Assembly (NCBI GenBank): GCA_964355525.1
Contig: CAYHDY010000005.1
Coordinates: 1-39,061 of the forward strand
Direction: 5' to 3'
Length of the DNA: 39,061 nt
From: an uncultured Gammaproteobacteria bacterium
GTDB taxonomy: Bacteria; Patescibacteriota; Patescibacteriia; UBA9934; GWF2-40-263
A program made the position numbers and the translations under genes. Of this stretch, positions 319-33,434 are shown piece by piece. Position 1 is the stretch's first letter. The number at the start of each line of letters is the position of its first letter. The notes under the pieces are model-generated. The model was not told the DNA's origin. It saw nothing but the letters and a program-made list of their open reading frames with translations, and did no database searches.

Positions 319-3063
319 TTATTTTTCTTCCAATAACATGCCTAGAAATCCATCTGTGTTATTTCCAAAATGGATTTGTGCGAGATCGGACGAACTCCAG
401 AGGGTGTGAAGAGAATCGGGAATATGCAGATTAACGATTGTCGTACGATCAATGACACCGGATTGTTTTTGAACGAGAAGGGAATACGTGTTCGTTTTTG
501 GAATACCGAGGAGTGATCGAATGGTTTCTGTGGTTGGATTTTGTGTGAGGAGATTTGAGAGATTAAAAGGAAGTGCATAGGTGAATTGAACGGTTGTTGT
601 TTCACCCGGCTTTGTTTGCGTCCAGTTTCCGAAAACGGTTTTTCCATTTTCTGTGTAGGTTTGCGTACCGCTCACCTGATCAATAGAGAAACTGTCGTCG
701 GCATATTGTAAATCCGGATCAACGATCCATGACGGATCCGGCGTTTCAAACAATTGCCCCGCAGGAATGATGAAACCGGATGAAGTTAAAAGTTTACTTC
801 CGTTTGGAACATACAATCGCAAATAGTTTACGTTGTGCTCTCCTGTAAACTCTTCTCCGAGAACACCCTTGTGTGTTCGTGTGATCGTTACCGTGTTTTC
901 GATGGTTCCTGCGGAGTTTATGTTTACATCAACGTTGATTTTTTCTTCCATGACTCCGTCTGTTTTTCCTCCGCCCAAATTTGTGTCGATAAGCATGAGA
1001 TAATCTTTGTCTGTCGCTTTAATCTCACCGCTCCATCCGCGTTCACGAATTGTGCGTTCCGTCGCGTCGTCATTGAAATACATCTGAATTTCTTTTTGTG
1101 CGAGTCCTGTTTGCACATGATTTGCGAGATCAAGAAATGTTTCGGGGGATTTGTGCAAAGCTTTTTCAATCAGTTTCGGCGCAAGATCTCCGATGAATGC
1201 TTTCGGTTTGTTTTCCGTTTTGTCGTATTCATTCTCGACGATTTTTTGTGTTTCCAAAAGAAAATTGTTTTGATCAATGATGCGTCCGTATTCCGGCATG
1301 TCGACCGGACCGAGCAGTCCGAGAAGATCTGTCACAAAATTTGCATTGATCGCGATGACTCCATCAACATCGGATCCGCCGGCGTCTTTGTAAAATTGAA
1401 TCATCTGTCGTGCGCTTGTTGGGAAATCCGGAAACCAGTTTGCATCTTGGAATTGCCATTTTGCAGAAAGAAGTTGCAATGGCCATGGAGAAACAAACGA
1501 TGTTCGAAGTTGTCCTTGCAAATCATACGTTCCGCCGCCCGGAACCGTGAGAGAATCCATGAGCCCGTTGTGCACCGACAGTTCTGCGAAGCTTCCCATG
1601 AATCCGCCGGTCGGTCGGATCTCCGTGTTGTTTTGAAAAATCAGGAGATAGCGTTTGGTTCCGTTTGTTCCCATGATGGATTGAACTGTGTCCGAGAGTG
1701 CAAGAAATTCTTTGGTGGAATCGACAAGCGTGGGAAGCGATGTTTGTAATTGTGTGAATGTTTGTCTGTTCGATTCATCAATCGCATTTGCATCCACGTC
1801 CAGCATCGCTTTTTGTGCGGCTTCAAGATGGGGAATCGCGGAGGTGAGATAGAGTGTCAACAATTGAACGCGCGAGGAAGGGGTCGGACTCAACTCTTGT
1901 TGCATGGCCGCGAGTCCGTCCGAGACGCGCGATCCGGCGATCGAGAGTTCTTCGCCGACCGTGAGAAGCGCCGCATTTGTTTTGTATGTTTTTTGTGTTG
2001 GGCCGAGTGTGGAAAGCAGAAGTTGCACGCCGCCGCCCAATTGTTTGATCGCTTGATCCGCTTGTCCGAATTGTTCGCTCGCGCGCGAGAAGGATGCTCC
2101 CGCCGCAGAAGGGTTCGTTACAAGATTCGCGCCCGCCGCCGCTTTCAAACTCGCAAGCGCTTGTTCGCCGTTCGACTGTGCACTCGTCTTTGCGCTGCGC
2201 AATTGATTCAATACTTGCATCGCATGAAGCGGAAGAACGAAAACGAATGACGCGAGTACAAACCCGCCGATCGCCCGTTGCCATCCAACTGGCATCTCAA
2301 CCGCAAAAGAAAATCGCGGCCATCGAAATGAACTCGTTCTCTCCCCTTTGGTAAGGGGGAGTAGGAGGGGGACGTCTTGTGTTTCATTTTGTGTCGAAGC
2401 AACGAGATCCGCCAATTCAAAAATTTCTTCTGTCTCTTCTTCCTGTGCCGATTCATCCTCGGGCAAATCAAAATACGACATCAGATTTTCTGGTGTGAGT
2501 TTTGGAATGAATGCATCAGCGGAAACGTGAATGTCATTGCGGGAAATGTGCAATGGAATGCTTTCAAGATGTTTGTGCGAACGCGACGGAAAAACATTGT
2601 GAAGTCGAGACGTCAAAAATCGCATCGTAGGGGAGGGTCGAGACCCTCCCGCAAACGAAACACCCAATTGTCGATTCACCTCGTCCGCCGAGAGAACAAG
2701 ATCGTTTGTTGTGTCGACAATGTGAGCTGGTTTATCGTTGGATGATTCAACAAAGTTGGTAAGAAAATTTAACGGTGCCGGTGTATACGAATCTTCCGCA
2801 ATCAATTGCTCCGGCATGGGAACGTTTGCACGCAGTTCAAGAACGAACGGTGACAGTTCGGATAGATGTGTTTGCTCGATGTGTGGGATTTGTAATTTCG
2901 GATGTCGTGAGATGAGTCCGAGAGATCGTACATCGTCCGGTAACGATTCATCATACAATCGCGTTGCACTGTTGATGGTTTTTCTTCGGCGAATGGCGTG
3001 CAAGATCGCGCGATCTCCGGCGGAGCCGGATCCGGCTCCGCCGGAAAAAGAAACACGAGCCAT
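319..3063 (-). CDS. DUF4012 domain-containing membrane protein
   Basis: YLLIFQNNTEIRPTGGFMGS and DANWFPDFPTSA motifs typical of DUF4012, with one TM helix. Start placed at ATG 3063 (GTG 3117 is an alternative) because the track ORF overlaps the GT gene. Confidence 0.85.
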   Translation of the reverse strand: MARVSFSGGAGSGSAGDRAILHAIRRRKTINSATRLYDESLPDDVRSLGLISRHPKLQIPHIEQTHLSELSPFVLELRANVPMPEQLIAEDSYTPAPLNFLTNFVESSNDKPAHIVDTTNDLVLSADEVNRQLGVSFAGGSRPSPTMRFLTSRLHNVFPSRSHKHLESIPLHISRNDIHVSADAFIPKLTPENLMSYFDLPEDESAQEEETEEIFELADLVASTQNETQDVPLLLPLTKGERTSSFRWPRFSFAVEMPVGWQRAIGGFVLASFVFVLPLHAMQVLNQLRSAKTSAQSNGEQALASLKAAAGANLVTNPSAAGASFSRASEQFGQADQAIKQLGGGVQLLLSTLGPTQKTYKTNAALLTVGEELSIAGSRVSDGLAAMQQELSPTPSSRVQLLTLYLTSAIPHLEAAQKAMLDVDANAIDESNRQTFTQLQTSLPTLVDSTKEFLALSDTVQSIMGTNGTKRYLLIFQNNTEIRPTGGFMGSFAELSVHNGLMDSLTVPGGGTYDLQGQLRTSFVSPWPLQLLSAKWQFQDANWFPDFPTSARQMIQFYKDAGGSDVDGVIAINANFVTDLLGLLGPVDMPEYGRIIDQNNFLLETQKIVENEYDKTENKPKAFIGDLAPKLIEKALHKSPETFLDLANHVQTGLAQKEIQMYFNDDATERTIRERGWSGEIKATDKDYLMLIDTNLGGGKTDGVMEEKINVDVNINSAGTIENTVTITRTHKGVLGEEFTGEHNVNYLRLYVPNGSKLLTSSGFIIPAGQLFETPDPSWIVDPDLQYADDSFSIDQVSGTQTYTENGKTVFGNWTQTKPGETTTVQFTYALPFNLSNLLTQNPTTETIRSLLGIPKTNTYSLLVQKQSGVIDRTTIVNLHIPDSLHTLWSSSDLAQIHFGNNTDGFLGMLLEEK

Positions 3064-3097: not shown

Positions 3098-4303
3098 TTA
3101 AGCGGATTTTTTTCCACACGTTTCGTAAAGGGCGATGATTTTGATCGCCATGGTTTTCCAAGAAAATTGTTTGATGTGTTGTGTTCCTCGTTCGATGAGT
3201 ACTGCGCGTTTTTCGGATGAGACCAATAGGTCGGATACGACCGATGCGATCCGTTGCGAATCATTCGGGTCAAAGAAAGCGGCTGCATTGCCAAGAATTT
3301 CTTTGAGCGATGGAATGTCCGACGCGGCAACCGCCACACCGACCGACATTGCCTCAAGCGGCGGAAGCCCGAAGCCTTCGACTCGTGACGGAAAGACAAA
3401 CAGAGTTGCTTCGCGATAAAGTCCCGCAAGTTGTTCATCCGTCGGATTCGGAACGAACGTGATTCCCTCGTAATAGGCGGGGTCCCTTGATCCCGTCACG
3501 CCAGACCCCGCACGCGATTGCAACAATCGTTTGTAAAAAATCGATTCACCACCCGCAAGAATCAACTGCGCATTCGGATGTGTCTTTCGAATGATCGCGA
3601 ACGCTTCGAGTAACCGTTCCAAATTTTTATGCGGATACGCGTTGCCGACATATAAAAGGTTCCGGGCTGCATCCTCCCCCGGCCCCTCCTTTGCAGGAGG
3701 GGAGAAGTAAATTCCGCTCTCCTCCCCTGCAAAGGGGAGGCCGGGAGGGGTCTCGAGTCGAGTCACTCCCTCGTAAATCATTTCAATTTTATTTCTCGGA
3801 ACATCCGGAAAAAACTTGATGATCGCATCTTCGGTCGCGTGAGACACTGCGACGATTTTCTTCGATCTACGAATCGCATGGGACAAAACGATTTTATAGC
3901 CGACGTACTTGAGAAAAAAGATAAACGGGTTTCGTGTTGTGACTTTCGACGATCGTGGTTCTTCGAGCAAGATCAAATCGTGAATGGTCACGACAAACGG
4001 CGTCTTCATCAACACGGGAACGTTCCAATGCGGGAAGTGAACGAGATCAAGTTGCTCGCGATCGACAATGCCACCGAACTTCATCTGCTCTCCAAGTGTG
4101 TACCAATGAATATCTGCGAGTCGCTTTTCGAAATGCGGATTGACGATGCGACACGCGTCGAAGTTTTCTTTTTTGAGGAACAAAACATAGCGGTTCTCGG
4201 TGTCGTTTGCTTGCAACTCCGTCACAAGCTGTTCAACATATCGTCCAAGACCGCCCCCACCCACCGTCGGGCCAAACATCCGTGCATCGATTCCGATTTT
4301 CAT
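3098..4303 (-). CDS. Glycosyltransferase family 4 (GT-B)
   Basis: MKIGIDAR N-terminus, VVTIHDL, YVGNAYPHKN, EGFGLPPLEAM. Confidence 0.95.
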   Translation of the reverse strand: MKIGIDARMFGPTVGGGGLGRYVEQLVTELQANDTENRYVLFLKKENFDACRIVNPHFEKRLADIHWYTLGEQMKFGGIVDREQLDLVHFPHWNVPVLMKTPFVVTIHDLILLEEPRSSKVTTRNPFIFFLKYVGYKIVLSHAIRRSKKIVAVSHATEDAIIKFFPDVPRNKIEMIYEGVTRLETPPGLPFAGEESGIYFSPPAKEGPGEDAARNLLYVGNAYPHKNLERLLEAFAIIRKTHPNAQLILAGGESIFYKRLLQSRAGSGVTGSRDPAYYEGITFVPNPTDEQLAGLYREATLFVFPSRVEGFGLPPLEAMSVGVAVAASDIPSLKEILGNAAAFFDPNDSQRIASVVSDLLVSSEKRAVLIERGTQHIKQFSWKTMAIKIIALYETCGKKSA

Positions 4304-4350: not shown

Positions 4351-4411
4351 GTCATCCTGAGCGAAGGCTACTGATCGGTCACAGCCGAAGCCGAAGGATC
4401 TTCGTTCGAGC
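4351..4411. repeat. REP-like element (GTCATCCTGAGCGAAG...CGAAGGATCT type)
   Basis: gtcatcctgagcgaagg...gccgaaggatct with an internal insert, in intergenic DNA. Confidence 0.5.
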
Positions 4412-4434: not shown

Positions 4435-4500
4435 TAAAAAATAAAAACACACCCGCACGACAGGAGAACACGGATGTGTTTCTGTCGCGCATGGGTGCGT
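4435..4500 (-). terminator. Long hairpin plus U-tract closing the small-gene array
   Basis: caccc/gggtg, cgacag/ctgtcg and aacac/gtgtt stems, followed on the minus strand by tttttattttt. Confidence 0.65.
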
Positions 4501-4514
4501 GAGGACTTCTTCTG

Positions 4515-4781
4515 CTAGAGCGAACTCCAGACCACGAACGACAAGCGTTCGGGGCGCGTTTTCTTGCACTGGCCGGCATTCGGACGCGGCGCTTCGCACA
4601 CATCCGTCGTGTAGTCGTGGACGGGCATGCTCAACTCCTCCCCCAGCTTTTGCATGTCTTGCATCATCTCGAGGTGCATCTGCGCCCGATCGAGATATCG
4701 ATCTCCTCGGCGCAGTTCTAGGAATTGTGTCGCAAGGAATGCAACGAGTGCCATCGCAATGAGCGATACGGGAACTTTCAT
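4515..4781 (-). CDS. Hypothetical protein with N-terminal TM/signal (array gene 11)
   Basis: 88 aa, GGAGG SD at 4786-4790, GC3-rich codons. Confidence 0.7.
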   Translation of the reverse strand: MKVPVSLIAMALVAFLATQFLELRRGDRYLDRAQMHLEMMQDMQKLGEELSMPVHDYTTDVCEAPRPNAGQCKKTRPERLSFVVWSSL

Positions 4782-4974
4782 GAGGCCTCCAATGTTTCGA
4801 GTTCTATTCCATCAAACGCTATTTGCGCAGACAGTTCTGTCGATTGTTCAAATTTCGAATCACCAACGCTCGATTCAATCAAACGTCTGTGAAAAGGCCC
4901 GAACGATTTTTGATCATTATTCCGGCAGTTCCGGACATGGATCGCAATCGCTCAGGCAGTTGTCGAAAGGACGT

Positions 4975-5556
4975 CTACTTCTTCGGAGCCCAGCAAAACG
5001 CTCGGGTGTACACGTCGCAATCGACTTCGTACTCGGTCGTCTGGCTTCGGTTGAGCTTCATGACGCAAAGCAACGGTTCCTTGCTGTCACCGATGAACAT
5101 TGCGCAGACTTCGCGGAAGGCCCTGCCGCCTATGTTCCAAACGAGCGGGACACACTTCTCGCTTACCAGATCCGGCAGTTTACGGTCGATGTTTTCCTGT
5201 ACCGCCGTCGCCGTCGTATCTTCCTCGAGTTCGAGGTCGAATTCCTCCGGCTTGTTGTCGGCTGCCGTCGGTGTCGAGTCTTCTTCGAGATCGAGATCGA
5301 TCTCTTCCTTGCCGTTGATCAGTCTGAGTGGCACGTCTTCTTCGGTCGTGTTCGTCACCGCAGGCACCAGCGGCTCCGGGTGGTTCGCATAGATGGTCAC
5401 CTTCACGGGCGGCGGAACGTACCTGATCACCGCCTCAGTCGCGCTCTTGTCGGTTTCGTCTTGCGGCAAGGGCGGAATCACGCCTCGTCCGCACGCCGAG
5501 ATGCCGAACGCCAGGACGAGAACAGCGATTACGAAACGGGAAAAGTTGAACTGCAT
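4975..5556 (-). CDS. Putative lipoprotein with acidic tandem repeat and Cys-containing C-terminus (array gene 10)
   Basis: Signal peptide ending in the ISAC lipobox; GGAGG at 5562-5566. Confidence 0.8.
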   Translation of the reverse strand: MQFNFSRFVIAVLVLAFGISACGRGVIPPLPQDETDKSATEAVIRYVPPPVKVTIYANHPEPLVPAVTNTTEEDVPLRLINGKEEIDLDLEEDSTPTAADNKPEEFDLELEEDTTATAVQENIDRKLPDLVSEKCVPLVWNIGGRAFREVCAMFIGDSKEPLLCVMKLNRSQTTEYEVDCDVYTRAFCWAPKK

Positions 5557-5620
5557 GATTGCCTCCTTGAATGTTGGCCGAGGTGCCCCTCGACGTCGAG
5601 CGTGATTGCCGACGATTTTC
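5554..5620 (-). repeat. Array intergenic repeat A, copy 1
   Basis: gttggccgaggtgcccctcgacgtcgagcgtgattgccgacgattt, shared with copies at about 6722 and 8663. Confidence 0.95.
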
Positions 5621-5677
5621 TAACACGATTTCGTCCACCGCAACCCTGCGATGTTCGAACTTCTTCACCTTGCAAAA

Positions 5678-5809
5678 CTAGTACATGATCGCCTTCGCGC
5701 CGGTCTTGTAATTCCACGCGCGGGTATCGCCAACGCAGCGACACCAACCCGTGTATCCGCGACCTTCGGGATCCACTTGGTACTCGAATTTTCCTAGTTG
5801 TTGCCACAT
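5678..5809 (-). CDS. Small hypothetical protein, 43 aa (array gene 9)
   Basis: MWQQLGKFEY... preceded by a GGAGGG SD. The upstream part of the track ORF is the B3 repeat. Confidence 0.6.
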   Translation of the reverse strand: MWQQLGKFEYQVDPEGRGYTGWCRCVGDTRAWNYKTGAKAIMY

Positions 5810-5855
5810 GCTGCCCTCCGTTCTGAACTTGAGTCTTCGATCAAGAGAGTTGATC

Positions 5856-5924
5856 GATTCCTCGAGTAAAGGCTCGACACGATCCGGAATTTCCGAAGCG
5901 TGTCGAGCAAGTTTGGAAAGGAAC
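5856..5924 (-). repeat. Array intergenic repeat B, diverged short copy (B3)
   Basis: gattcctc..taaagg, then the gctcgacacg/cgtgtcgagc hairpin, then agtttggaaaggaac. Colinear with B1/B2 but lacks the second hairpin. Confidence 0.7.
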
Positions 5925-5930
5925 TGCGGA

Positions 5931-6212
5931 CTAGAGCGAGATCGTGTTGCCACTGTGGCCGTGCATCATGACCATGACCATCGCCCCGTTTTTCAGCGTG
6001 AGGCCGCCGAGTGCACGAACGATGGCTCGAGCTTCACGACCAGCATCGTCGGTCGGTTGATGGCTCGTGATCGCGATGCTGTACGGATAGTTCAGCTCAC
6101 TCTTGAGTCGACGTTTGACCTCGTCCTCATCTATGGACGTCCGGACGATGTCGATCGCTGCCACCTTGAGTTCCGCGTCCGTCATGTCATGAAAGGTCTT
6201 GCCTGCATTCAT
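5931..6212 (-). CDS. Hypothetical protein, 93 aa (array gene 8)
   Basis: GAGGA SD at about 6218-6222; GC3-rich. Confidence 0.7.
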   Translation of the reverse strand: MNAGKTFHDMTDAELKVAAIDIVRTSIDEDEVKRRLKSELNYPYSIAITSHQPTDDAGREARAIVRALGGLTLKNGAMVMVMMHGHSGNTISL

Positions 6213-6287
6213 GATTTTCCTCTTCTTGCTCCACTTTGTGAGTCGAGCGTTCGCACGTTCATTTTAAGAATCGGTTGCGATGTACGT

Positions 6288-6707
6288 TCAGCTGCGGCGC
6301 TTGCTCCGGCATTTGTCGATCAACCGTTCGATGGTGGGTCCGAAGGTTTCCTCCATCATATTGTCGAATCGACGTTGCAGAACTTCCAAGGTGTCCAACG
6401 CACTGGGTTCGGAACGCCGCACGACGAGCCATGCACTGAACAGGCCGACGAGTGACAGCAGAGTGTCCTCGTTGCCAGCACCGTCTATGGCGAACAGCAC
6501 GACGACGCCGGTGAAACCGATGATCAACGCAAGTGCGACGAAGCCGATGATGATAGTGGCGACGTTTTCGATTCGCGATATCGCCGGCGGTCGTTTCATG
6601 AGGAGAGATTCCTTCAGCCCCTCCAAGCAGACAGCTGCTATCATGCCGACTACTTGGCCGACTGCGATCACACAAACATAGAACTGCAAAAAGGTGGGGA
6701 ACTGCAT
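6288..6707 (-). CDS. Hypothetical membrane protein, about 3 TM (array gene 7)
   Basis: Three hydrophobic segments; GGAGA SD within repeat A2. Confidence 0.75.
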   Translation of the reverse strand: MQFPTFLQFYVCVIAVGQVVGMIAAVCLEGLKESLLMKRPPAISRIENVATIIIGFVALALIIGFTGVVVLFAIDGAGNEDTLLSLVGLFSAWLVVRRSEPSALDTLEVLQRRFDNMMEETFGPTIERLIDKCRSKRRS

Positions 6708-6770
6708 GGTTGTCTCCGTGGGTTGGCGCGAGGTGCCCCTCGACGTCGAGCGTGATTGCCGACGATTTCT
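6699..6770 (-). repeat. Array intergenic repeat A, copy 2
   Basis: Core nearly identical to A1. Similarity extends into the first three codons (ATG CAG TTC). Confidence 0.95.
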
Positions 6771-6801
6771 GAATGTTCACGCGACACACATGGCCGCGTG
6801 A

Positions 6802-7197
6802 TTACGAATCGAGCAGAAACTTTTTCGCATCCGTCGCGGTCATCACTTCGAACGTGACTTCCGACCACATGCGTGTCGGTGGCGGATTCGGTTTGTAGAA
6901 ATCGACCAAGATCTTGCGACCGCAGCCGATGATGAAGTGTGCGTTCTTCGCGACTGTCTCGGCGTCTTCCTTGCGGAGCGTCGACATGACCACGATGAAC
7001 AGTTCGTCCGGATCGATCTCCGTGGCGATGCGTTCGATATCGGTGGCGTACAAATCGCCATGACCAATCCGCTCGCCGCACTTATTGTACCAATACGCAT
7101 TCGTCGCGACCGCCGCGCCGAATGAGAACTGGCCGGACTTGATTCCGAAGGCGGGCGAAGTTCCTTGCACATCGAACATGTTTCGAGTCAATTGCAT
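6802..7197 (-). CDS. Hypothetical protein, 131 aa (array gene 6)
   Basis: GGAGG SD at 7204-7208; contains a WYNKCGERIGHGDL segment. Confidence 0.8.
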   Translation of the reverse strand: MQLTRNMFDVQGTSPAFGIKSGQFSFGAAVATNAYWYNKCGERIGHGDLYATDIERIATEIDPDELFIVVMSTLRKEDAETVAKNAHFIIGCGRKILVDFYKPNPPPTRMWSEVTFEVMTATDAKKFLLDS

Positions 7198-7210
7198 CTT
7201 TCGCCTCCAG

Positions 7211-7371
7211 TTGATTCCTCAATCCATCCGCAACGTAAATCGTCACGAAGGTAATAAAGGGCTCAACGCATCCGGGACCATCCCAGAGTCGTTGAGCAGG
7301 CCAGGCAGTTGCCGCGGAGATGTTTTACGTCTCCGCGGCTGTTGCCTGGCGAGTTTGAGAAAGAATTTTCG
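7211..7371 (-). repeat. Array intergenic repeat B, copy 1 (161 bp, two hairpins)
   Basis: Near-identical to 8129-8289; hairpins at 7261-7297 and 7300-7350. Confidence 0.97.
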
Positions 7372-7375
7372 AAGA

Positions 7376-7702
7376 TCAATCGTCCCACTTGCCGAGGCAG
7401 GCGTCGCGGATGCTGGCGTTCAGCTCGTCCGTCAGAGCCTGATCGATTCGTTCGTAGTTGAACACGACCGCGACCGCCCACTTCTCGTTTCGGATTTGCG
7501 GCTTGATGATCAAGATGCGCCGAAACTTTTTGGCCTGCGGGGTCCACTCGAATCGATCTTGCTCACGCAAGGCGATGATGATTGGAACTTCGCATTCCGC
7601 CATGTCCCGATCTTGCACTCCGTACTGCTTGCAGAACCGGCGCAGCGTGTGGAGCGCGAGTTCAACCAGTTCCACAGGAATCAGTTTTTTCACGTCGTTC
7701 AT
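7376..7702 (-). CDS. Hypothetical protein, 108 aa (array gene 5)
   Basis: Start MNDVKKL with a GAGGA SD at 7711-7715; the longer track start overlaps the next gene. Confidence 0.7.
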   Translation of the reverse strand: MNDVKKLIPVELVELALHTLRRFCKQYGVQDRDMAECEVPIIIALREQDRFEWTPQAKKFRRILIIKPQIRNEKWAVAVVFNYERIDQALTDELNASIRDACLGKWDD

Positions 7703-7710
7703 GGTTTTTT

Positions 7711-7758
7711 TCCTCGTGTCCCGCGTCATACGCCGGACGAATGTGTTGTTGTTCGAAC
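7711..7758 (-). repeat. Array intergenic repeat C, copy 1
   Basis: tcctcg..cccgcgtcatacgccgg..ttgttgttcgaac matches 9136-9177. Confidence 0.75.
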
Positions 7759-8114
7759 TAGATGAGTGGCAGGCTCTGGATTCGCGGGTCGTCTTTGTTG
7801 TACAGCCCTTCGTCCGCGACGAGAACGGTTTCTTTTCCGTCCGCATCGATTCCGAAGAACGTGCAATCCTCGTGTCCGATGCGAACGCGGAATCGACGCT
7901 CATAGGTGAATTCCGAGCTGAGCATCGTCTTGCCGCAAAAATCGCGGTAACCAACTCGACACGCGCGGCCGAGCATCACGTTGTTCAGAACCGCCTGCTT
8001 CTTCCATCCGAAGAACAGAAGCCACAGCAAATTCCACCAACGCGTCGGCGCCGCAGTCTTGTCACCTTTGACGAGCTCACCATTCTCGATTTCTTTGTCG
8101 AACTTCTTCCACAT
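7758..8114 (-). CDS. Hypothetical protein, 118 aa (array gene 4)
   Basis: GAGGTG SD upstream; Trp-rich hydrophobic patch. Confidence 0.75.
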   Translation of the reverse strand: MWKKFDKEIENGELVKGDKTAAPTRWWNLLWLLFFGWKKQAVLNNVMLGRACRVGYRDFCGKTMLSSEFTYERRFRVRIGHEDCTFFGIDADGKETVLVADEGLYNKDDPRIQSLPLI

Positions 8115-8128
8115 GCCTCACCTCGATA

Positions 8129-8289
8129 TTGAATCCTCAATCCATCCGCAACGTCATTCGTCGCGAAGGTAATAAAGGGCTCAACGCATCCGGGACCATC
8201 CCAGAGTTGTTGAGCAGGCCAGGCAGTTGCCGCGGAGGTTTTTTACGTCTCCGCGGCTGTTGCCTGGCGAGTTTGAGAAAGAACTTTCG
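8129..8289 (-). repeat. Array intergenic repeat B, copy 2
   Basis: 161 bp, only a few substitutions relative to 7211-7371. Confidence 0.97.
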
Positions 8290-8296
8290 GCCGAAC

Positions 8297-8647
8297 CTAC
8301 TTGATGATCACGATGTGCGGAGTCGCCTTCGGAAGGTCTTCCTTGCTGATCGTGATCACTGCATTACCGCTCACGACCTGTCGGATCGTCATGCTGCTGT
8401 CTTTGTGCTGTGTGCAGAAGAACGCAAGGCCACCGAAAGTGCACGGCATGGTCGGATCCATGTTATCGTGCAGAGCCAATCGCTCCTCGCACATCTTCCG
8501 CGCGACGTGCGCGCTCCAGGACGGTTTGTTCCAGTTCTGGTCAGTCACCGCACTGCAGGTTGTCGCCACTTGCTTCTGTCGTTCCTTGTTGACCGAACAA
8601 CCGACGAAGCAAGAAGCTAGAACGATGAGGATGAGAATGTAGCGCAT
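8297..8647 (-). CDS. Putative Cys-containing lipoprotein, 116 aa (array gene 3)
   Basis: Signal peptide with the FVGC lipobox; GGAGG SD at 8653-8657. Confidence 0.8.
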   Translation of the reverse strand: MRYILILIVLASCFVGCSVNKERQKQVATTCSAVTDQNWNKPSWSAHVARKMCEERLALHDNMDPTMPCTFGGLAFFCTQHKDSSMTIRQVVSGNAVITISKEDLPKATPHIVIIK

Positions 8648-19678: not shown

Positions 19679-19708
19679 TCCGCCAAAGGCGGATCCGCCT
19701 CTGGCGGA
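19679..19708. repeat. Tandem TCCGCC-nnn-GGCGGA palindrome
   Basis: tccgccaaaggcggatccgcctctggcgga; the family also occurs at 26701, about 37470, 3016 and about 22278. Confidence 0.8.
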
Positions 19709-22254: not shown

Positions 22255-22428
22255 TCAACCTACACGAGCGGATTTCCCGGCGGAGCCGGGTCCGGCTCCG
22301 CCGGATCTCGGCGCGCCAAATCGTTTCATGCCTTTTCCTGAGACGATCATTTTCGGATTCATTTTTTTGTGACGACGTTTTGCTCGCGCTTCTTCTTTCG
22401 ATTGTGCAATCTCGTGTGGATGATTCAT
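22255..22428 (-). CDS. Possible small basic protein
   Basis: MNHPHEIAQSKEEARAKRRHKKMNPKMIVSGKGMKRF; the tail is encoded by a palindromic repeat. Confidence 0.4.
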   Translation of the reverse strand: MNHPHEIAQSKEEARAKRRHKKMNPKMIVSGKGMKRFGAPRSGGAGPGSAGKSARVG

Positions 22429-25380: not shown

Positions 25381-28305
25381 ATGCCTCAAGAATACATTTC
25401 TGTCCGTGGTGCGCGTGTGCATAATTTGAAAAACATTGATGTTGATATTCCAAAAAATAAATTGGTGGTGATCACGGGACTTTCAGGATCCGGAAAATCT
25501 TCACTTGCCTTCGATACGATTTACGCGGAAGGACAGCGCCGATACATGGAATCGTTGTCGAGTTATGCTCGACAATTTCTCGAGCTTCAAGACAAACCGG
25601 ATGTCGATGAGATTCTCGGACTTTCTCCGACGATTGCGATTGATCAGAAATCTTCTTCGCACAATCCGCGCTCAACCGTCGGAACAGTGACGGAGATTTA
25701 TGATTTTTTGCGTGTCCTCTTTGCGCGTGCCGGACGTCCGCATTGTCCGAAGTGCGGAAGACTCGTGACCGAGCAAACGCTCGTACAGATGGTGGATGCA
25801 ATCGAAAAGATGATTGGGAAAGATACAATCTTGTTGTTCGCACCAGTTGTGAAAGAACAAAAGGGAGAACATAAACATGTTTTGCAAGCCGCGTTGAATG
25901 CGGGATTCACTCGCGTTCGTTATGACGGATTGATTGTTGATACGGAGGAGGCAAGCATCATGCGCAAAGATAAAAAGAAAGATCATGATATTGATGTTCT
26001 TGTGTTTACATTTGAAGGCGGCATGACGTATTCGAAAGATCATGTGACAGCGCTCGTGAAGAAAGCGCTTGATTACGGAAATGGATTCATTACACTTGTG
26101 AATGATGAAACAGGCGATGAACGTGCACTTTCGCAAAGCTTCATGTGCGGATATGACGGATTGAATTTGCCAAAGCCGGAACCGCGACTCTTTTCGTTTA
26201 ACTCGCCGTACGGTGCGTGTACGGAATGTACAGGTCTCGGCGAGAAGCTTGTGCTCGAACCGGATCTTGTGATTCCGAATCGTCGGCTCACAATCGAAGA
26301 AGGCGCGATTCGTCCGTGGTCTCGCATTGCGGGAAATCAAACGAGTTATCTTCGTCTTCTCGAAATCGTCGGACGCAAACAAAAAATTCCATTGGATGTT
26401 CCGGTTGAAAAAATTCCAAAAGCAAAATTTGATTTATTGTTGAATGGAACGGGCGATGAGCTCTACACATTCGACGGACAAGAAGTTCCGTTCACCGGCA
26501 TCCTCGCGCAACTTGAACAAAAATATCGCGAGACGGATTCGGAATATGTGCGCGCGGAACTCGAGGGTTACATGCGCCGCATGTTGTGTCCGGGATGTTC
26601 AGGTAAGCGTTTGCAGCCAGCTGTGCTTGCGATCACGATCGCAGACAAATCGATCGCCGACATTGTGAACATGCCGGTCGAGGATGTGTTTGCGTTTTTC
26701 TCCGCCATAGGCGGATCCGCCTATGGCGGAGAATCATTATTGGGGAAGGGTGGAAAGCGAAACAATGTAGGGGCACCCCTTGTGGGCGCCCGCGCGAAAT
26801 CGAATTCGAATGCAATCGCAAGCGGATTATCATCCGACGAAACATTGATTGTTGAACGTGTGGGAAAAGAAGTCTGTGCGCGTCTGAAACAGCTCACAGA
26901 AGTCGGACTTGGATATTTGACGCTTGATCGCTCTGCGATGACTCTGTCGGGCGGAGAATCGCAACGTGTGCGTCTCGCGACACAACTTGGAAGCGGACTC
27001 TCTGGTGTCATTTACATTCTCGACGAGCCATCCATCGGATTGCATCCGCGTGATAATGATCGATTGATTCAGACGATTCGCCGATTGCAGGAATCCGGAA
27101 ATTCCGTGATTGTTGTTGAACACGATGAAGCGATGATTCAAGCAGCGGATTACGTTTTTGATGTTGGTCCGGGTGCAGGAGAATATGGCGGGGAAGTTGT
27201 GGCGGAAGGAACGGCCGCGCAAATTAAAAAGAATAAACAATCACTCACCGGACAATATCTTTCCGGAGTACGATCGATTCCAACGCCGAAGAAATATCGC
27301 AAAGGAAACGGAAAGGCAATCGAGATCATCGGGGCGACCGCGTTCAATTTGCAAAATGTAAGTGTGTCGATTCCACTTGGAAAACTTGTGTGTGTGACGG
27401 GGGTTTCCGGTTCGGGAAAGTCGACATTGATTCTCGACATTCTCGGAAAGTCTCTCTCAAAACATTTTTATCGTGCAAAAGAATTTCCGGGAGCGCATAA
27501 AGCATTGAAGGGAATAGAACATATCGACAAAGTTGTCGCGGTTGATCAATCACCGATCGGACGTACACCGAGATCTAACCCAGCGACATACACAGGTGTG
27601 TTCACTGCGATCCGTGATTTGTTCACGGAAGTGCCGGAAGCAAAGATGCGAAACTTCGATGCAGGAAAATTTAGTTTCAATGTGAAAGGCGGCGGACGAT
27701 GCGAACCGTGTTCCGGTGACGGAATGCGTCGCATCGAAATGCAATTCTTGCCGGATGTGTATGTTGAATGTGCGGAGTGCCACGGCACACGTTATAATCA
27801 AGAAGTGCTTGAGGTTCACTACAAACAAAAAAATATCTCCGACGTCTTGCAGATGACGGTCGAAGAAGCACGTCGATTCTTTGCGGATCAAACCGCGATC
27901 TTCGACAAACTCGATGTTCTTCACGAAGTTGGGCTTGGATACATTCGATTGGGACAATCTGCGACGACTCTTTCGGGTGGAGAAGCTCAACGTGTGAAAC
28001 TCTCAACCGAACTTTCTCGTCGCGCGACGGGTCGAACGTTGTATATTCTCGACGAGCCAACGACCGGTTTGCACTTCGAGGATATAAAACGATTACTCGG
28101 TGTCCTTCACATGCTCGTCGACAAAGGCAACACGGTCGTTATCATCGAGCACAACCTCGACGTCATCAAAGGCGCTGACTGGGTGATTGACATGGGACCT
28201 GAGGGTGGTGTCAAAGGTGGTAAGCTGGTCGCCGAGGGGACACCAAAGGATATTGTGAAAAACAAGGAAAGCGTCACAGGAAAATATTTGAAACCATTGT
28301 TATAA
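25381..28305 (+). CDS. uvrA: Excinuclease ABC subunit A
   Basis: [10 protein letters not shown], two Walker A motifs ([16 protein letters not shown]), LSGGE signatures, Zn fingers. Start MPQEYI. Confidence 0.98.
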
Positions 28306-30420: not shown

Positions 30421-30600
30421 ACGGGTGAGTAATCACGTTCGAGAGGAATACATCGTTTTACGAACGATCAGCATTCATGGACACGTTGATTCAATGTGGC
30501 GAAATGATAACGAATATCATGATTTTCGTCAACCCGGCAGCTGCCGGGTCAATGGTGGTCGTTTTGTAATCGTTTGTAGGGGATGGTCGCGACCATCCCG

Positions 30601-31173
30601 TTAACCCATCGTAATAGGCGGGGTGCCCACACCCCGCACGCATTCGATAACCCGTTCGACAATTGATTCCGGCGTCATCGATGACGTATCAATCACGAGA
30701 TCATAATTCGTTCGATCGAGAAAATCCACGCCATAGTATTTTTGATAACGTCTGGAATCGGATGCAATGCGGTTCTCGATGAATTGTTTCGCTTCGTCGA
30801 CGTCTTTATATGCTGTTTCGTCCGATCGCTCTCCTGCGCGCGATGCTTCGAAAATTCGCGTTGCACCAACATTCGAATCCACGTCAAGAAATAGTTTGAA
30901 CGAGTTCGGAATGAAGTGCCAGGACAATCGTCCGTCGATCACGAACGATTCGCCTCGCTTTCCAAGTTCTGTTTGATAATCATCGACATCTTTATCCGTG
31001 AATGCTTCCGATTCGCCGATCTCATTTAACGCATCGATCGTGATTCCACGTTCCTTCGCCATTTTTCCACGAAGGTCTCCAACCGAATACCAGGGAACAT
31101 TCAATTTTTCGGAAAGCATTTTTACAATTGTTGTTTTTCCGGAACCGGGAAGTCCAGTGATGGTGATGATCAT
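30601..31173 (-). CDS. cmk: Cytidylate kinase (archaeal-type CMP kinase family)
   Basis: IITITGLPGSGKTT, VIDGRLS, SDSRRYQKYYG, YDLVIDTS. Confidence 0.85.
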   Translation of the reverse strand: MIITITGLPGSGKTTIVKMLSEKLNVPWYSVGDLRGKMAKERGITIDALNEIGESEAFTDKDVDDYQTELGKRGESFVIDGRLSWHFIPNSFKLFLDVDSNVGATRIFEASRAGERSDETAYKDVDEAKQFIENRIASDSRRYQKYYGVDFLDRTNYDLVIDTSSMTPESIVERVIECVRGVGTPPITMG

Positions 31174-31175
31174 AT

Positions 31176-33434
31176 TTATTTTGTGAATCGTTTCGATAAT
31201 GCTTCCGCGCGTGTTGTGTCGATTTTGGTCAGTTGATCAAAAAGAATTTTTTCTTGTCGAGTATATCCTCCGTTGTGATAGAGGGTTATGCCGCCTTCAA
31301 GAATGTTGGGAAGTTTCGGATATTTTTTAATCATGTGCGTGATGTAAGGGTTCATATCTTCTGGCCACGCGGGATGTTTTTCCGATCCTTGAATCAACCC
31401 AGTGAAGAATGAAACGTCGCCGTATGTCTGGGCGCCAAGATTGAATGCCTGTTCAAGTTCCTGAAAGGCTTCCGGATATTTTCCTTCCGCAGCATAGACA
31501 CCCGCATTTTCAAACGTCGGTTGTCCTTTTGTTTCTTCGACAACGGATCGTTGTTTCGCCTCATCAAGAAGTTTGTGTGCATCATCGAAACGATTTTGTG
31601 TTCGCGCAATCTGTGCAAGCACGAGGAGAGGCTCTGCACGTTTGGGTGCAAGTTCTTGTGCACGTTCTGCTGTTTGTTTTGCAAACGCTTGCGAGTTCGC
31701 ATCGCCTAATTGTGTTCCTGCAAACCATGCTTGTGCAAACGCGAGTTTTGGATCCGTCGGATGTTCCGTTGCTATTAAGAGAATTGTATTTTGCATGGTT
31801 TTGAGCAGTTGCATCATCTCTTCAGAGTCGATACCAAACATCAAACGCGCCGCTAAGAGAGGTTCATTCATGTGCAGAATCATGTCTGTTTTGTAGGGCG
31901 ATGGATGATTTGTCGCGTGTTTGAACGCGATTGACGCGTTTGAAATTTCTCCCTGCATGAATGCTTCTTCCGCTGTTTTTATACGTAATTCATCCGCGAA
32001 TGGTCGAATGTTTGCAAAGACGATAAGGGGAACGCTTGCAACGAATAACAAGAGGAGGCAGAGGATTGCGAGTGTCGATCGTTTTTTTGACGGATCTGTT
32101 TGTTCTGTTATTTGTATCGAATCGCGCGCAAAGAAAATCGGCAACGAAGCAAAGACAAAAAATAACAAGACTTGTTCGATGAACAGATCGAACAAAAAGA
32201 ATTTTTCGATAAGAAATGCGATGACGAATAAGAAGAATGTAATTGCAATTTTCTTTTTTTCTTCGGTCTGTTCAGAGCGACGTTGAAACAACATCCACAC
32301 AATCGAACTCCAAAGCATCAGATATCCGACAAGTCCGATGATTCCATTTGAAACAAGCAGATCGAGAAATTGATTATGCGCCCGGCTGTACCACATCTCG
32401 GTAAGATTTTGTTTTGATTGCGTTGGATCAAACAGGTTGTTGAATGGAACGGAAAATTGTTCGAGTCCCCATCCAAAGATCGGTTTTTCCGCGGATGCAC
32501 GCAGAGCGATATTCCAAAGTTCAACGCGATCGGATGAATTCGATCGTAAAAGGGAACTGCCTCCTGAGTGTGATTTTTCAAATAAACCTAAACCGACGAC
32601 GCTGACGACGAGGAGAAGAAGAAAAATAGGAAAGAAAAACTTTTTTGGCAAATGAATCGTTTGCTCTACTCGCGCGGCAACCGTCTTTCGAAACAAAATG
32701 ATTGCAACAATACTTGCGACGGCGAGTCCGAGGAATGAAGAACGCGAACCGGTGAGAAGAAGCGTGAACAGTTCAAATCCCAAGATCCAAAACAACGGTT
32801 TTCGATGGGACGGTTTTTCGATCAACAGCAAACAGACGATGAAAATGTGGATGAGAAGATAGGTGGAAAGAATGAGTGGATTGCCGAGCGTTGATCCAAT
32901 GCGACCGAATCCGATTTTGAACCATTCGCAAAATCCGAGAATGGAAACGGCGACAGAAACGTAAGTTGAAAACAAAAAGAGACGCGTCCAGTCTGTGCGC
33001 TCTCGAAAAAGAGATGTCAGAATCAAAAACCAAAATGCAAAATGGATATACTGGAACAATCCCATCATGTCGTTTTGATTTGACCAAAAACTGGCGATCG
33101 GATCGACGCCGAATGCGTGTGTGGCAAGAAGCGTCGCAAGAAAAATTCCGATTCCGATTGTGACGGGAGATGTGAAATTCGGTCGAACACGTTTGTCGAG
33201 AATCATCAGAGGGATCCAACACACGATCATGATCTCAACAAGACTTTGAAACAAAAGTGCTTTTGGAAAAACAAAAGGGAAATCAATGCGAAATCCCGGA
33301 ATGTCCGTGATCAACAAGGGAGACAACAGGATCAGACTGGTTGCGATGACAATGACCGCGCGTAAAAACCGTTGAAATGCCGGAACGGTTTTTGGATAAG
33401 CCGTTCCGAACAAGAATGTTTTTATGCGTGACAT
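31176..33434 (-). CDS. O-antigen ligase (Wzy_C) family protein with C-terminal TPR-like region
   Basis: Many TMs, STLGNP, LTGSRSS, PIFGWG, RAHNQFLD. Confidence 0.88.
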   Translation of the reverse strand: MSRIKTFLFGTAYPKTVPAFQRFLRAVIVIATSLILLSPLLITDIPGFRIDFPFVFPKALLFQSLVEIMIVCWIPLMILDKRVRPNFTSPVTIGIGIFLATLLATHAFGVDPIASFWSNQNDMMGLFQYIHFAFWFLILTSLFRERTDWTRLFLFSTYVSVAVSILGFCEWFKIGFGRIGSTLGNPLILSTYLLIHIFIVCLLLIEKPSHRKPLFWILGFELFTLLLTGSRSSFLGLAVASIVAIILFRKTVAARVEQTIHLPKKFFFPIFLLLLVVSVVGLGLFEKSHSGGSSLLRSNSSDRVELWNIALRASAEKPIFGWGLEQFSVPFNNLFDPTQSKQNLTEMWYSRAHNQFLDLLVSNGIIGLVGYLMLWSSIVWMLFQRRSEQTEEKKKIAITFFLFVIAFLIEKFFLFDLFIEQVLLFFVFASLPIFFARDSIQITEQTDPSKKRSTLAILCLLLLFVASVPLIVFANIRPFADELRIKTAEEAFMQGEISNASIAFKHATNHPSPYKTDMILHMNEPLLAARLMFGIDSEEMMQLLKTMQNTILLIATEHPTDPKLAFAQAWFAGTQLGDANSQAFAKQTAERAQELAPKRAEPLLVLAQIARTQNRFDDAHKLLDEAKQRSVVEETKGQPTFENAGVYAAEGKYPEAFQELEQAFNLGAQTYGDVSFFTGLIQGSEKHPAWPEDMNPYITHMIKKYPKLPNILEGGITLYHNGGYTRQEKILFDQLTKIDTTRAEALSKRFTK

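Follow-up and report, generated by a model that had tools for sequence, protein, structure and literature searches.

A modular multi-hairpin spacer repeat in a small-gene island of an uncultured patescibacterium, and a natural variant joining its two copies

We analysed a 39,061-nt stretch of DNA (contig CAYHDY010000005.1 of assembly GCA_964355525.1, positions 1 to 39,061; hereafter the window) from an uncultured bacterium that GTDB places in the Patescibacteriota. The subject is Repeat B, a 161-nt element that occurs twice between the genes of an island of small open reading frames (ORFs). In our numbering the genome is G000 and the window is its contig C5; G001, G002, G003, G006 and G007 are congeners. 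The genes around both copies of B all lie on the minus strand, so that their mRNAs read as the reverse complement of the window and B occupies the stop-to-start gaps of a small-ORF array. The parts of the locus needed at the outset are:

4440..9364, minus strand: island holding B, comprising a promoter, a leader motif, a leader terminator hairpin, small ORFs and a terminator-like site
7211..7371, minus strand: Repeat B copy 1, in the spacer between the stop of gene 7376-7702 and the ribosome-binding site of gene 6802-7197
8129..8289, minus strand: Repeat B copy 2, 95% identical to copy 1, in the spacer between genes 8297-8647 and 7758-8114
5856..5924, minus strand: short copy B′, made up of a tail, hairpin 1 (5872-5908, stem GCTCGACACG/CGTGTCGAGC) and a linker, with no hairpin 2

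A repeat search of the window places the two 161-nt copies 918 nt apart, with roughly eight differences between them. An earlier sequence-only reading had described them as near-identical elements beside unrelated genes, and both statements stood: the proteins encoded downstream of the two copies align at E 0.17, which is not significant, and those encoded upstream give no alignment at all. In gene sense each copy runs from 3-9 nt past a stop codon to ~14 nt ahead of the next start, so that the downstream gene keeps its own Shine-Dalgarno sequence. BLAST of the entire assembly (1.03 Mb, 71 contigs, 91% complete) returned only these two full-length copies, along with two chance-level fragments (E 0.27 and E 1.7). 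No direct repeat of the kind expected from target-site duplication flanks either one. The Rfam check that had been proposed was run and no family matches B; only four tRNAs reach the gathering threshold in the window, and in E-value mode B scores best with a microRNA-precursor model, at 27.6 bits where the threshold is 61. A phage origin of B or of its island was considered and rejected: B matches none of 50,697 phage records, the pattern of its second hairpin (see below) is absent from viral contigs, and the ten island ORFs scanned have no PHROG family.

Folded as RNA, copy 1 reaches -82.6 kcal/mol on the minus (mRNA) strand (z -8.1 against shuffles) and -77.7 kcal/mol on the plus strand (z -6.8), so each strand is far more stable than its shuffles. 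The mRNA strand is predicted to form three hairpins enclosed by an 8-bp closing helix, and the initial description of a two-hairpin element was in this respect incomplete. The predicted parts, with the corresponding positions of copy 2, are:

7300..7350 (copy 2, 8218-8268), minus strand: hairpin 2, with a variable upper stem above a lower stem of fixed sequence, the latter carrying a tandem mismatch (A.C/C.A on the mRNA strand)
7261..7297 (copy 2, 8179-8215), minus strand: hairpin 1, whose outer stem of 8 bp (GCTCAACG/CGTTGAGC) is separated by a 2x2 internal loop from an inner stem of 7 bp that includes one U-G pair
7224..7251 (copy 2, 8142-8169), minus strand: a weaker, predicted third hairpin with three G-U pairs, formed on the mRNA strand only
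7215..7362, minus strand: closing helix, a prediction only, in which the pyrimidine tail at 7355-7362 pairs with 7215-7222 and encloses the three hairpins

The third hairpin was identified from the fold prediction and from a comparison of the two copies, one of whose differences changes a U-G pair in it to C-G.

B′ keeps the tail, the linker and the motif gaggaatc, lacks hairpin 2, and has its hairpin 1 stem changed on both sides to GCTCGAC/GTCGAGC, all as previously read from the sequence; an additional small hairpin (5838-5854) comes after it. A scan for the hairpin 1 pattern gave 17 family copies, eight in this genome (three on C5 and five on contig C9), six in G006 and one each in G001, G002 and G003, together with one off-family match. 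In all 17 members the hairpin is preceded by a pyrimidine tail and followed by a C(C)TTT linker. Their arms change in step (for example GCTCGAC/GTCGAGC, GTTCGAT/ATCGAAC, GCTCAAC/GTTGAGC and GTTCGAC/GTCGAAC), and two copies have a U-G pair. This first covariation count was partly circular because the search pattern required complementary arms, and it was replaced by a set anchored on the conserved 3′ linker alone. The linker-only search gave 20 unique matches, 18 in islands and two elsewhere. At all 18 island matches a hairpin ends 1 nt ahead of the linker, with diverse stem sequences, and neither off-island match has a hairpin in that slot.

The linker is also the conserved base of a further hairpin (hairpin 3) with a variable, covarying tip, for which 15 pattern matches were found in 3 of 73 family genomes. 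Junction modules are co-oriented with the island ORFs at 11 of 11 linker matches on C9 and 7 of 7 in G006; hairpin 1 and hairpin 3 modules occur in islands only, in a single orientation to the ORFs and in a constant slot between conserved linkers. Across 27 island spacers the mean fold z on the mRNA strand is -3.9. Since the common form of this junction family has no hairpin 2, sequence comparison makes B′ the ordinary junction form and B a derived form, in which hairpin 2 was inserted between the tail and hairpin 1.

Hairpin 2 has a distribution of its own. When the island was compared by BLAST with 201 relatives, B was matched through hairpin 2 only, in four genomes of other genera. We then described hairpin 2 by a pattern with fixed arms, CCAGGCAAC-N-GCC and GGCAACTGCCTGG, leaving the upper stem free. 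The pattern occurs in 9 of 162 genomes of the order, this one included, and is single-copy in the other eight. A scan of one genome each of 185,579 species returned the same eight records as sole matches, and 241 million metagenome records yielded 17 loci, two of which are tandem-repeat false matches. Among genus congeners, tRNA-Trp carries the pattern in 0 of 7.

Outside B, these palindromes stand at tRNA 3′ ends. In five of the eight genomes the first three bases of the hairpin are the CCA of a tRNA-Trp called by ARAGORN; in a sixth the hairpin abuts a tRNA-Trp-like 3′ part; the remaining two have no called tRNA there, yet the flank ends in the same bases. Likewise, 11 of the 15 metagenome loci overlap a called tRNA by exactly CCA (3 Pro, 2 Trp, 3 Leu and 3 Lys). 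Behind the hairpin the last four bases of the tRNA are repeated, with drift, and a second CCA follows, which is always retained. Judged by its asymmetric middle, hairpin 2 lies in the tRNA sense in 17 copies and is flipped in five.

The pairing of hairpin 2 is conserved through sequence change. Over 23 distinct sequences 96.8% of cells are paired, and 8 of 19 pairs are changed on both sides (50 cells), a level reached by 0 of 500 shuffles; slid controls are far lower. As the pattern itself fixes the lower stem, the information here comes only from the seven upper pairs and one pair lying beyond the pattern. There is also covariation between the base just past the 3′ arm and the discriminator base of the tRNA (GC 14, AU 3 and GU 2 of 23). 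Taken with the 18 of 18 hairpin 1 slots that hold varying stems, these counts bear out the earlier suggestion of a structure under selection, and the further copies do covary.

The hairpin 2 of B fits both the fixed arms and the covarying upper stem of the CCA-abutting palindrome. It shares the fixed 13-nt arms with the tRNA-Trp-linked copies, its upper stem is nearest to that of the copy in G018, and B also keeps CCTGC, the first five bases of the seven-base stretch found 3′ of the palindrome behind tRNA-Trp. In B, hairpin 2 sits ~25 nt past a protein-gene stop rather than at a tRNA CCA, and among the collections searched B is the only case of hairpin 2 between two protein genes. On the simplest reading, part of a tRNA-Trp-end element was copied from another lineage into a junction of the island. 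The modularity first noted for B is thus real and reaches wider than was claimed, hairpin 2 being found separately behind tRNA genes.

A GIY-YIG nuclease gene often lies beside the tRNA-linked hairpin. Five of the eight genomes (G018, G021, G097, G153 and G157) have a GIY-YIG match within about 110 nt downstream of hairpin 2, and in these five translation puts the start of the ORF 34-64 nt past the second CCA. G124 has a match ~225 nt off, on the other side of the tRNA, and G033 and G055 have none on the hairpin 2 contig. Four metagenome loci also show the ORF behind hairpin 2, with three readable starts 35-69 nt past the second CCA. All nine copies followed by GIY-YIG appear to be tRNA-Trp-linked; for the Pro-, Leu- and Lys-linked copies, no GIY-YIG ORF lies within the 220 nt available. 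In this genome there is no GIY-YIG match on C5 or C9, and the ORFs adjoining B have no Pfam family. At its tRNA-Trp locus (G000:C11:23712-24122) the gene is followed by a perfect 24-nt palindrome, unlike hairpin 2, which begins with the CCA and on whose 3′ side lie a repeat of the last seven bases of the tRNA and, 134 nt downstream, a GIY-YIG match.

Other tRNA 3′ ends in these genomes also carry hairpins. Eight of the 34 tRNAs of this genome (Cys, Ala twice, Tyr, Val-TAC, Lys-CTT and Thr twice, on C2, C3, C7, C11, C26, C33, C40 and C61) share a hairpin, TCCTACGCTCT...AGAGCGTAGGA, that starts from the base after CCA and is followed by a shared trailer; many others lead directly into an intrinsic terminator. 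On G124:C12 (loci L017/L040, about 32640-32800) a second tRNA-Trp-like copy lies beside the intact tRNA-Trp, its anticodon loop apparently split, as judged by eye, by a GC-rich hairpin of ~28 nt; ARAGORN calls the intact tRNA-Trp only.

The region was found in four DNA metagenome runs from two studies, and one of them, run X3, contains a variant in which the two B copies are joined. The X3 contig (record 19, 1732 nt, depth 3.76, no mismatches) follows the window from 5948 to 7322 and resumes at 8241, and so lacks the following block:

7323..8240, no strand assigned: 918-nt block missing from the X3 contig, equivalent to one B plus genes 7376-7702 and 7758-8114

The joint falls within B, and 43 nt fit both sides. 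X3 read depth is 1.2 and 0 over the omitted genes (7539-8072), as compared with about 3.8 alongside. Judged by its sequence, the contig is the outcome expected from an exchange between B copies; its direction would be a matter of inference, as loss and gain are both compatible with it. The 43 nt of shared identity at the joint are what one would expect of homologous rather than site-specific exchange.

In the island around B, ten small ORFs were called and one more, of 22 codons, was read by eye; all point in the same direction. The GC content of the island is 0.54-0.56 at 5001-9000 and 0.43-0.51 on either side. Pfam gives no family for the nine minus-strand island ORFs scanned, among them those adjoining B, and the flanks of the island encode GT4 glycosyltransferases, an FkbM methyltransferase and a DUF4012 protein. 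Its control features, of which the promoter and terminator-like site come from a simple scan, are:

9364-9336, minus strand: strong sigma-70-like promoter, 11/12 matches with extended TG
9310-9284, minus strand: conserved 27-nt leader motif, GGGGAGAGAGCTG.GCTATCCAGTCCC
about 9239-9186, minus strand: leader terminator hairpin, between the promoter and the first ORF
4464-4440, minus strand: terminator-like site at the far end of the island
G000:C9:25660-25470, G000:C43:2757-2783 and loci L069, L070, L072, L073 and L075: leader unit elsewhere

By the same scan, the array holds no terminator and only one weak (9/12) promoter-like site, and B itself has no sigma-70-like promoter; the hairpins of B have no U-tract.

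Promoter, 27-nt motif and terminator hairpin make up a leader unit that is present in eight copies in 3 of 73 family genomes: three in this genome (the window, C9 and C43), three in G001 and two in G006. The motif is absent from the remaining family genomes (73 scanned, up to two mismatches), and the unit has no Rfam match. On C9 it heads a second island of 11 kb, and C43 is a third locus. The GCTATC of the motif can pair with a downstream GATAGC, and one copy is altered on both sides to GCGATC/GATCGC. From its sequence, the leader unit is a candidate cis-regulatory leader or small RNA. A leader peptide was rejected as an explanation: a mini-ORF (MFEYFS...) lies in the leader terminator of some copies only, and one copy lacks the ATG. 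G001 has an island at the same chromosomal position as that of the window, with different ORFs. Contigs of run X2 have 73 other letters in place of 31 nt at 4361-4393, at the far end of the island, and contigs of both X2 and X3 omit 97 nt of the leader (window 9237-9335), with short sides of 23 nt; these differences may be strain variants or sequence of relatives.

We tentatively favour, at somewhat less than even confidence, a reading of B as transcribed intercistronic punctuation hairpins that also provide handles for recombination, hairpin 2 having been captured from a mobile element of tRNA ends. The backbone of B is an ordinary island junction, consisting of a pyrimidine-rich tail after the stop codon, hairpin 1, linker and third hairpin, and a solo hairpin 2 palindrome entered it between the tail and hairpin 1. 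Transcription of the island, we infer, starts at the promoter at 9364-9336 and passes through the conserved leader. On the mRNA, each B may then form a compact domain of three hairpins, punctuating the transcript. Such a domain could have an RNA-level role as a barrier to 3′-to-5′ exonucleases, as an entry site for a double-strand-specific RNase, or as both, and neighbouring cassettes would thereby gain separate mRNA ends and stabilities. At the DNA level the copies would constitute 161 bp of portable homology, and homologous recombination between them could remove or add the two genes in between.

For hairpins 1 and 3, a constant orientation and slot with respect to the ORFs, together with a third hairpin in B that depends on G-U pairs, makes us lean towards RNA as the molecule acted on; for hairpin 2 the data lean towards a DNA palindrome. 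The sequence-only reading had held that wobble pairs in hairpin 1 favour the mRNA strand and those in hairpin 2 the opposite one. This is so in B itself, where a U-G pair in the inner stem of hairpin 1 falls on the mRNA strand and tandem G-T pairs of hairpin 2 on the opposite one; as a rule it did not hold, the larger samples being without consistent bias. Of 27 whole spacers, 18 are more stable on the mRNA strand (Wilcoxon p about 0.045 for energies, 0.055 for z-scores), a test weakened by the relatedness of the copies.

Several observations weigh against punctuation hairpins acting as RNA. The strand bias is weak: over 25 stems in the hairpin 1 slot the mRNA strand has 20 G-U pairs and the opposite strand 14, and the former is more stable in only 15 of these stems; the strand test on hairpin 1 alone was not significant. 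The tandem mismatch of hairpin 2 is invariant, reading A.C/C.A on the mRNA strand and G-T/T-G on the other. With 5 of 22 tRNA-linked copies flipped relative to the tRNA, a DNA palindrome fits better than a strand-specific RNA, and hairpin 2 may be a passenger without a role in B. Pairing of the tail with the Shine-Dalgarno sequence of the next gene was tried and rejected: the mean z against shuffled tails is 0.08 over 27 spacers, in which post-stop tails rank no better than other windows. Among the runs listed, the stretch is present as DNA only and in no RNA run, and two RNA runs of the same samples contain next to none of its sequence words. Lastly, the deletion joint is a single low-depth contig across a 43-base identical repeat, which could be an assembly artefact.

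The main rival reading is that B is selfish or neutral palindromic DNA, a mosaic resembling repetitive extragenic palindromes and bacterial interspersed mosaic elements (REP/BIME) or miniature inverted-repeat transposable elements (MITEs), in which hairpin 2 would be the scar or solo end of a tRNA-targeting GIY-YIG element. Stems would then persist only because palindromes propagate as palindromes, with no RNA function. We consider this possible, though doubtful. Hairpin 2 adjoins no fewer than four kinds of tRNA gene (Trp, Pro, Leu and Lys) with a direct repeat and CCA behind it, occurs in both orientations (17 same, five flipped) and often has a small GIY-YIG ORF after it, and these features speak for this reading. 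So do the other hairpin repeat families of the genome, GTAG- and GTAATAG-headed ones inside island spacers among them, and the hairpin 1 stems with no significant strand bias. However, the hairpin 1 and 3 modules are confined to islands in one orientation and one slot, unlike dispersed REPs, and B has only two copies and no target-site duplication. The genome has no outstanding transposase (the Y1_Tnp match, PF01797, reaches 19.4 bits against a cut-off of 23, on contig C64), and C5 and C9 have no GIY-YIG gene. The covariation of the base past the 3′ arm with the discriminator base, moreover, hints at a pairing under selection.

That every island opens with the same promoter, 27-nt motif and terminator hairpin (eight copies, three genomes) raises a different possibility, namely that the spacer hairpins are read-through signals (nut-like, for processive antitermination) or attenuation signals acting with the conserved leader. 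The GCTATC/GATAGC pairing, with both sides changed in one copy, would fit such a leader. We regard the idea as improbable: the spacer hairpins are without U-tracts, which leaves nothing obvious to antiterminate, and no boxA-like conserved single-stranded motif was identified in B.

The sequence-only reading had proposed either an RNA element or a single-stranded DNA recombination site; the former survives in the punctuation proposal, and the latter fared poorly. In its integron-like form, B would be an attC site: a tyrosine recombinase would cut and join the folded single strand of hairpin 1, or of the whole spacer, and cassettes would move in this way. A cassette-like, apparently promoterless array of small ORFs pointing one way, a natural variant without the block bounded by two spacers, and hairpin 1 arms in B (GCTCAAC/GTTGAGC) that fit RYYYAAC/GTTRRRY would all accord with this. 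Only 4 of the 17 family members fit that consensus, though (the two B copies and two others), whereas B′ and most others have different arms such as GCTCGAC/GTCGAGC, GTTCGAT/ATCGAAC and GTTCGAC/GTCGAAC; no extrahelical-base pattern was seen, and the X3 joint, with its 43 nt of shared identity, is of the homologous type. An integron integrase was not found (best TIGR02249 match 95.5 bits against a cut-off of 265, on contig C2); the sole tyrosine recombinase (PF00589) of the 91%-complete genome is on contig C2, and no resolvase matched in the genome. We therefore give an attC site very little credence. A promoter-early stem-loop element (PeSL), a regulatory cassette of terminator stem-loop plus promoter that provides each gene with its own transcript, is a highly improbable identity for B: recombining copies between small ORFs without family match in a variable region do recall PeSLs of T4-type phages (PMC2839356), whereas B has no sigma-70-like promoter in a simple scan, no U-tract on its hairpins and no phage match, and the island ORFs have no PHROG family.

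Extending the punctuation proposal from B to the islands as a whole, one may speculate that they are a new, integrase-free gene-cassette system of one Uhrbacteria-like genus. Leader-controlled operons of unrelated small secreted or membrane-protein genes would be separated by portable multi-hairpin junctions that punctuate the mRNA and serve to swap cassettes between islands and species, and hairpin modules would pass between tRNA trailers and junctions because a single host RNase or GIY-YIG-type nuclease recognises both. We think this unlikely in its entirety. If the RNA reading is true, the arrangement would offer compact, modular expression of changing accessory genes from one promoter in a very small genome; if the DNA reading is true, hairpin modules from tRNA ends colonise operons. 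On either reading, the B copies provide a concrete natural case of cassette loss via a structured spacer, with its breakpoint, in an uncultured lineage. The hairpin 2 family connects two repeat phenomena of the Patescibacteria, tRNA trailers and island junctions.

The window holds several other repeats. Repeat A, a second spacer repeat (5573-5642, 6723-6792 and 8663-8732, minus strand), stands upstream of three further genes of the island. Between copies, the first stem of Repeat A differs on both sides (gaacgaaa/tttcgttc in one form, gcgtga/tcacgc in another), and it has many copies in G001, G002, G006 and G007, usually behind two further hairpin modules. A GC-rich hairpin repeat headed by GTAATAG and GTAG-headed hairpins (families D6, D7 and D14), both with the look of REPs, are scattered in the window (3458-3495 and 30599-30636) and also lie in spacers of the C9 island. 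Perfect palindromes of 29-34 nt centred on GGATCC, whose arms differ between copies on both sides, are found at 3017-3045, 19680-19708, 22277-22305, 26702-26730 and 37471-37499 (families D2 and D4). At the window end, a direct repeat of 85 nt (family D5; 38587-38671 and 38977-39061) has 99% identity between copies 390 nt apart.

Our literature search returned no paper on such islands and nothing relevant on integrons or attC in Patescibacteria, on REPs in the candidate phyla radiation, or on palindromes at tRNA CCA ends; comparison is with better-known systems elsewhere. REP/BIME elements of enterobacteria are intercistronic palindromes that stabilise upstream mRNA and are assembled as mosaics. 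B resembles them as a mosaic of modules with GC-rich imperfect palindromes between cistrons and as a possible recombination substrate, and by analogy a role as a 3′ exonuclease barrier is plausible. It differs in that its modules are not dispersed, being confined to two or three islands per genome in one orientation and slot, in having no conserved GTAG-type head, and in taking one module from tRNA trailers; in addition, no REP-associated tyrosine transposase (RAYT, a Y1 transposase) scores above cut-off. RNase III processing hairpins lie between cistrons in the early region of phage T7 and in rRNA operons. The hairpin 2 of B is similarly a ~20-bp stem with a small internal loop between cistrons, although the sequences are unrelated. 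From the tRNA-CCA-abutting hairpins to which its hairpin 2 belongs, B differs in that the hairpin abuts neither a tRNA nor a GIY-YIG gene.

Sites of the attC type are about 57-141 nt long, and hairpin 1 is shorter, at 37-45 nt. Both systems have a one-directional array of small ORFs with imperfect inverted repeats between them, and the hairpin 1 arms of B fit the core-site consensus; unlike attC sites, the junction family does not keep the core sites, no IntI accompanies it, and the shared identity at the joint is long.

PeSLs of T4-type phages accompany small ORFs in a hypervariable region, with recombination between copies (PMC2839356). They differ from B, which by the simple scan has no promoter or U-tract terminator, resides in a bacterial chromosome and has three hairpins per spacer. 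In both cases, short conserved spacers flank unrelated small ORFs, and exchange between copies, documented for B by one low-depth contig, deletes or inserts genes (PMC2839356). PeSLs are the nearest functional counterpart to the recombination side of B.

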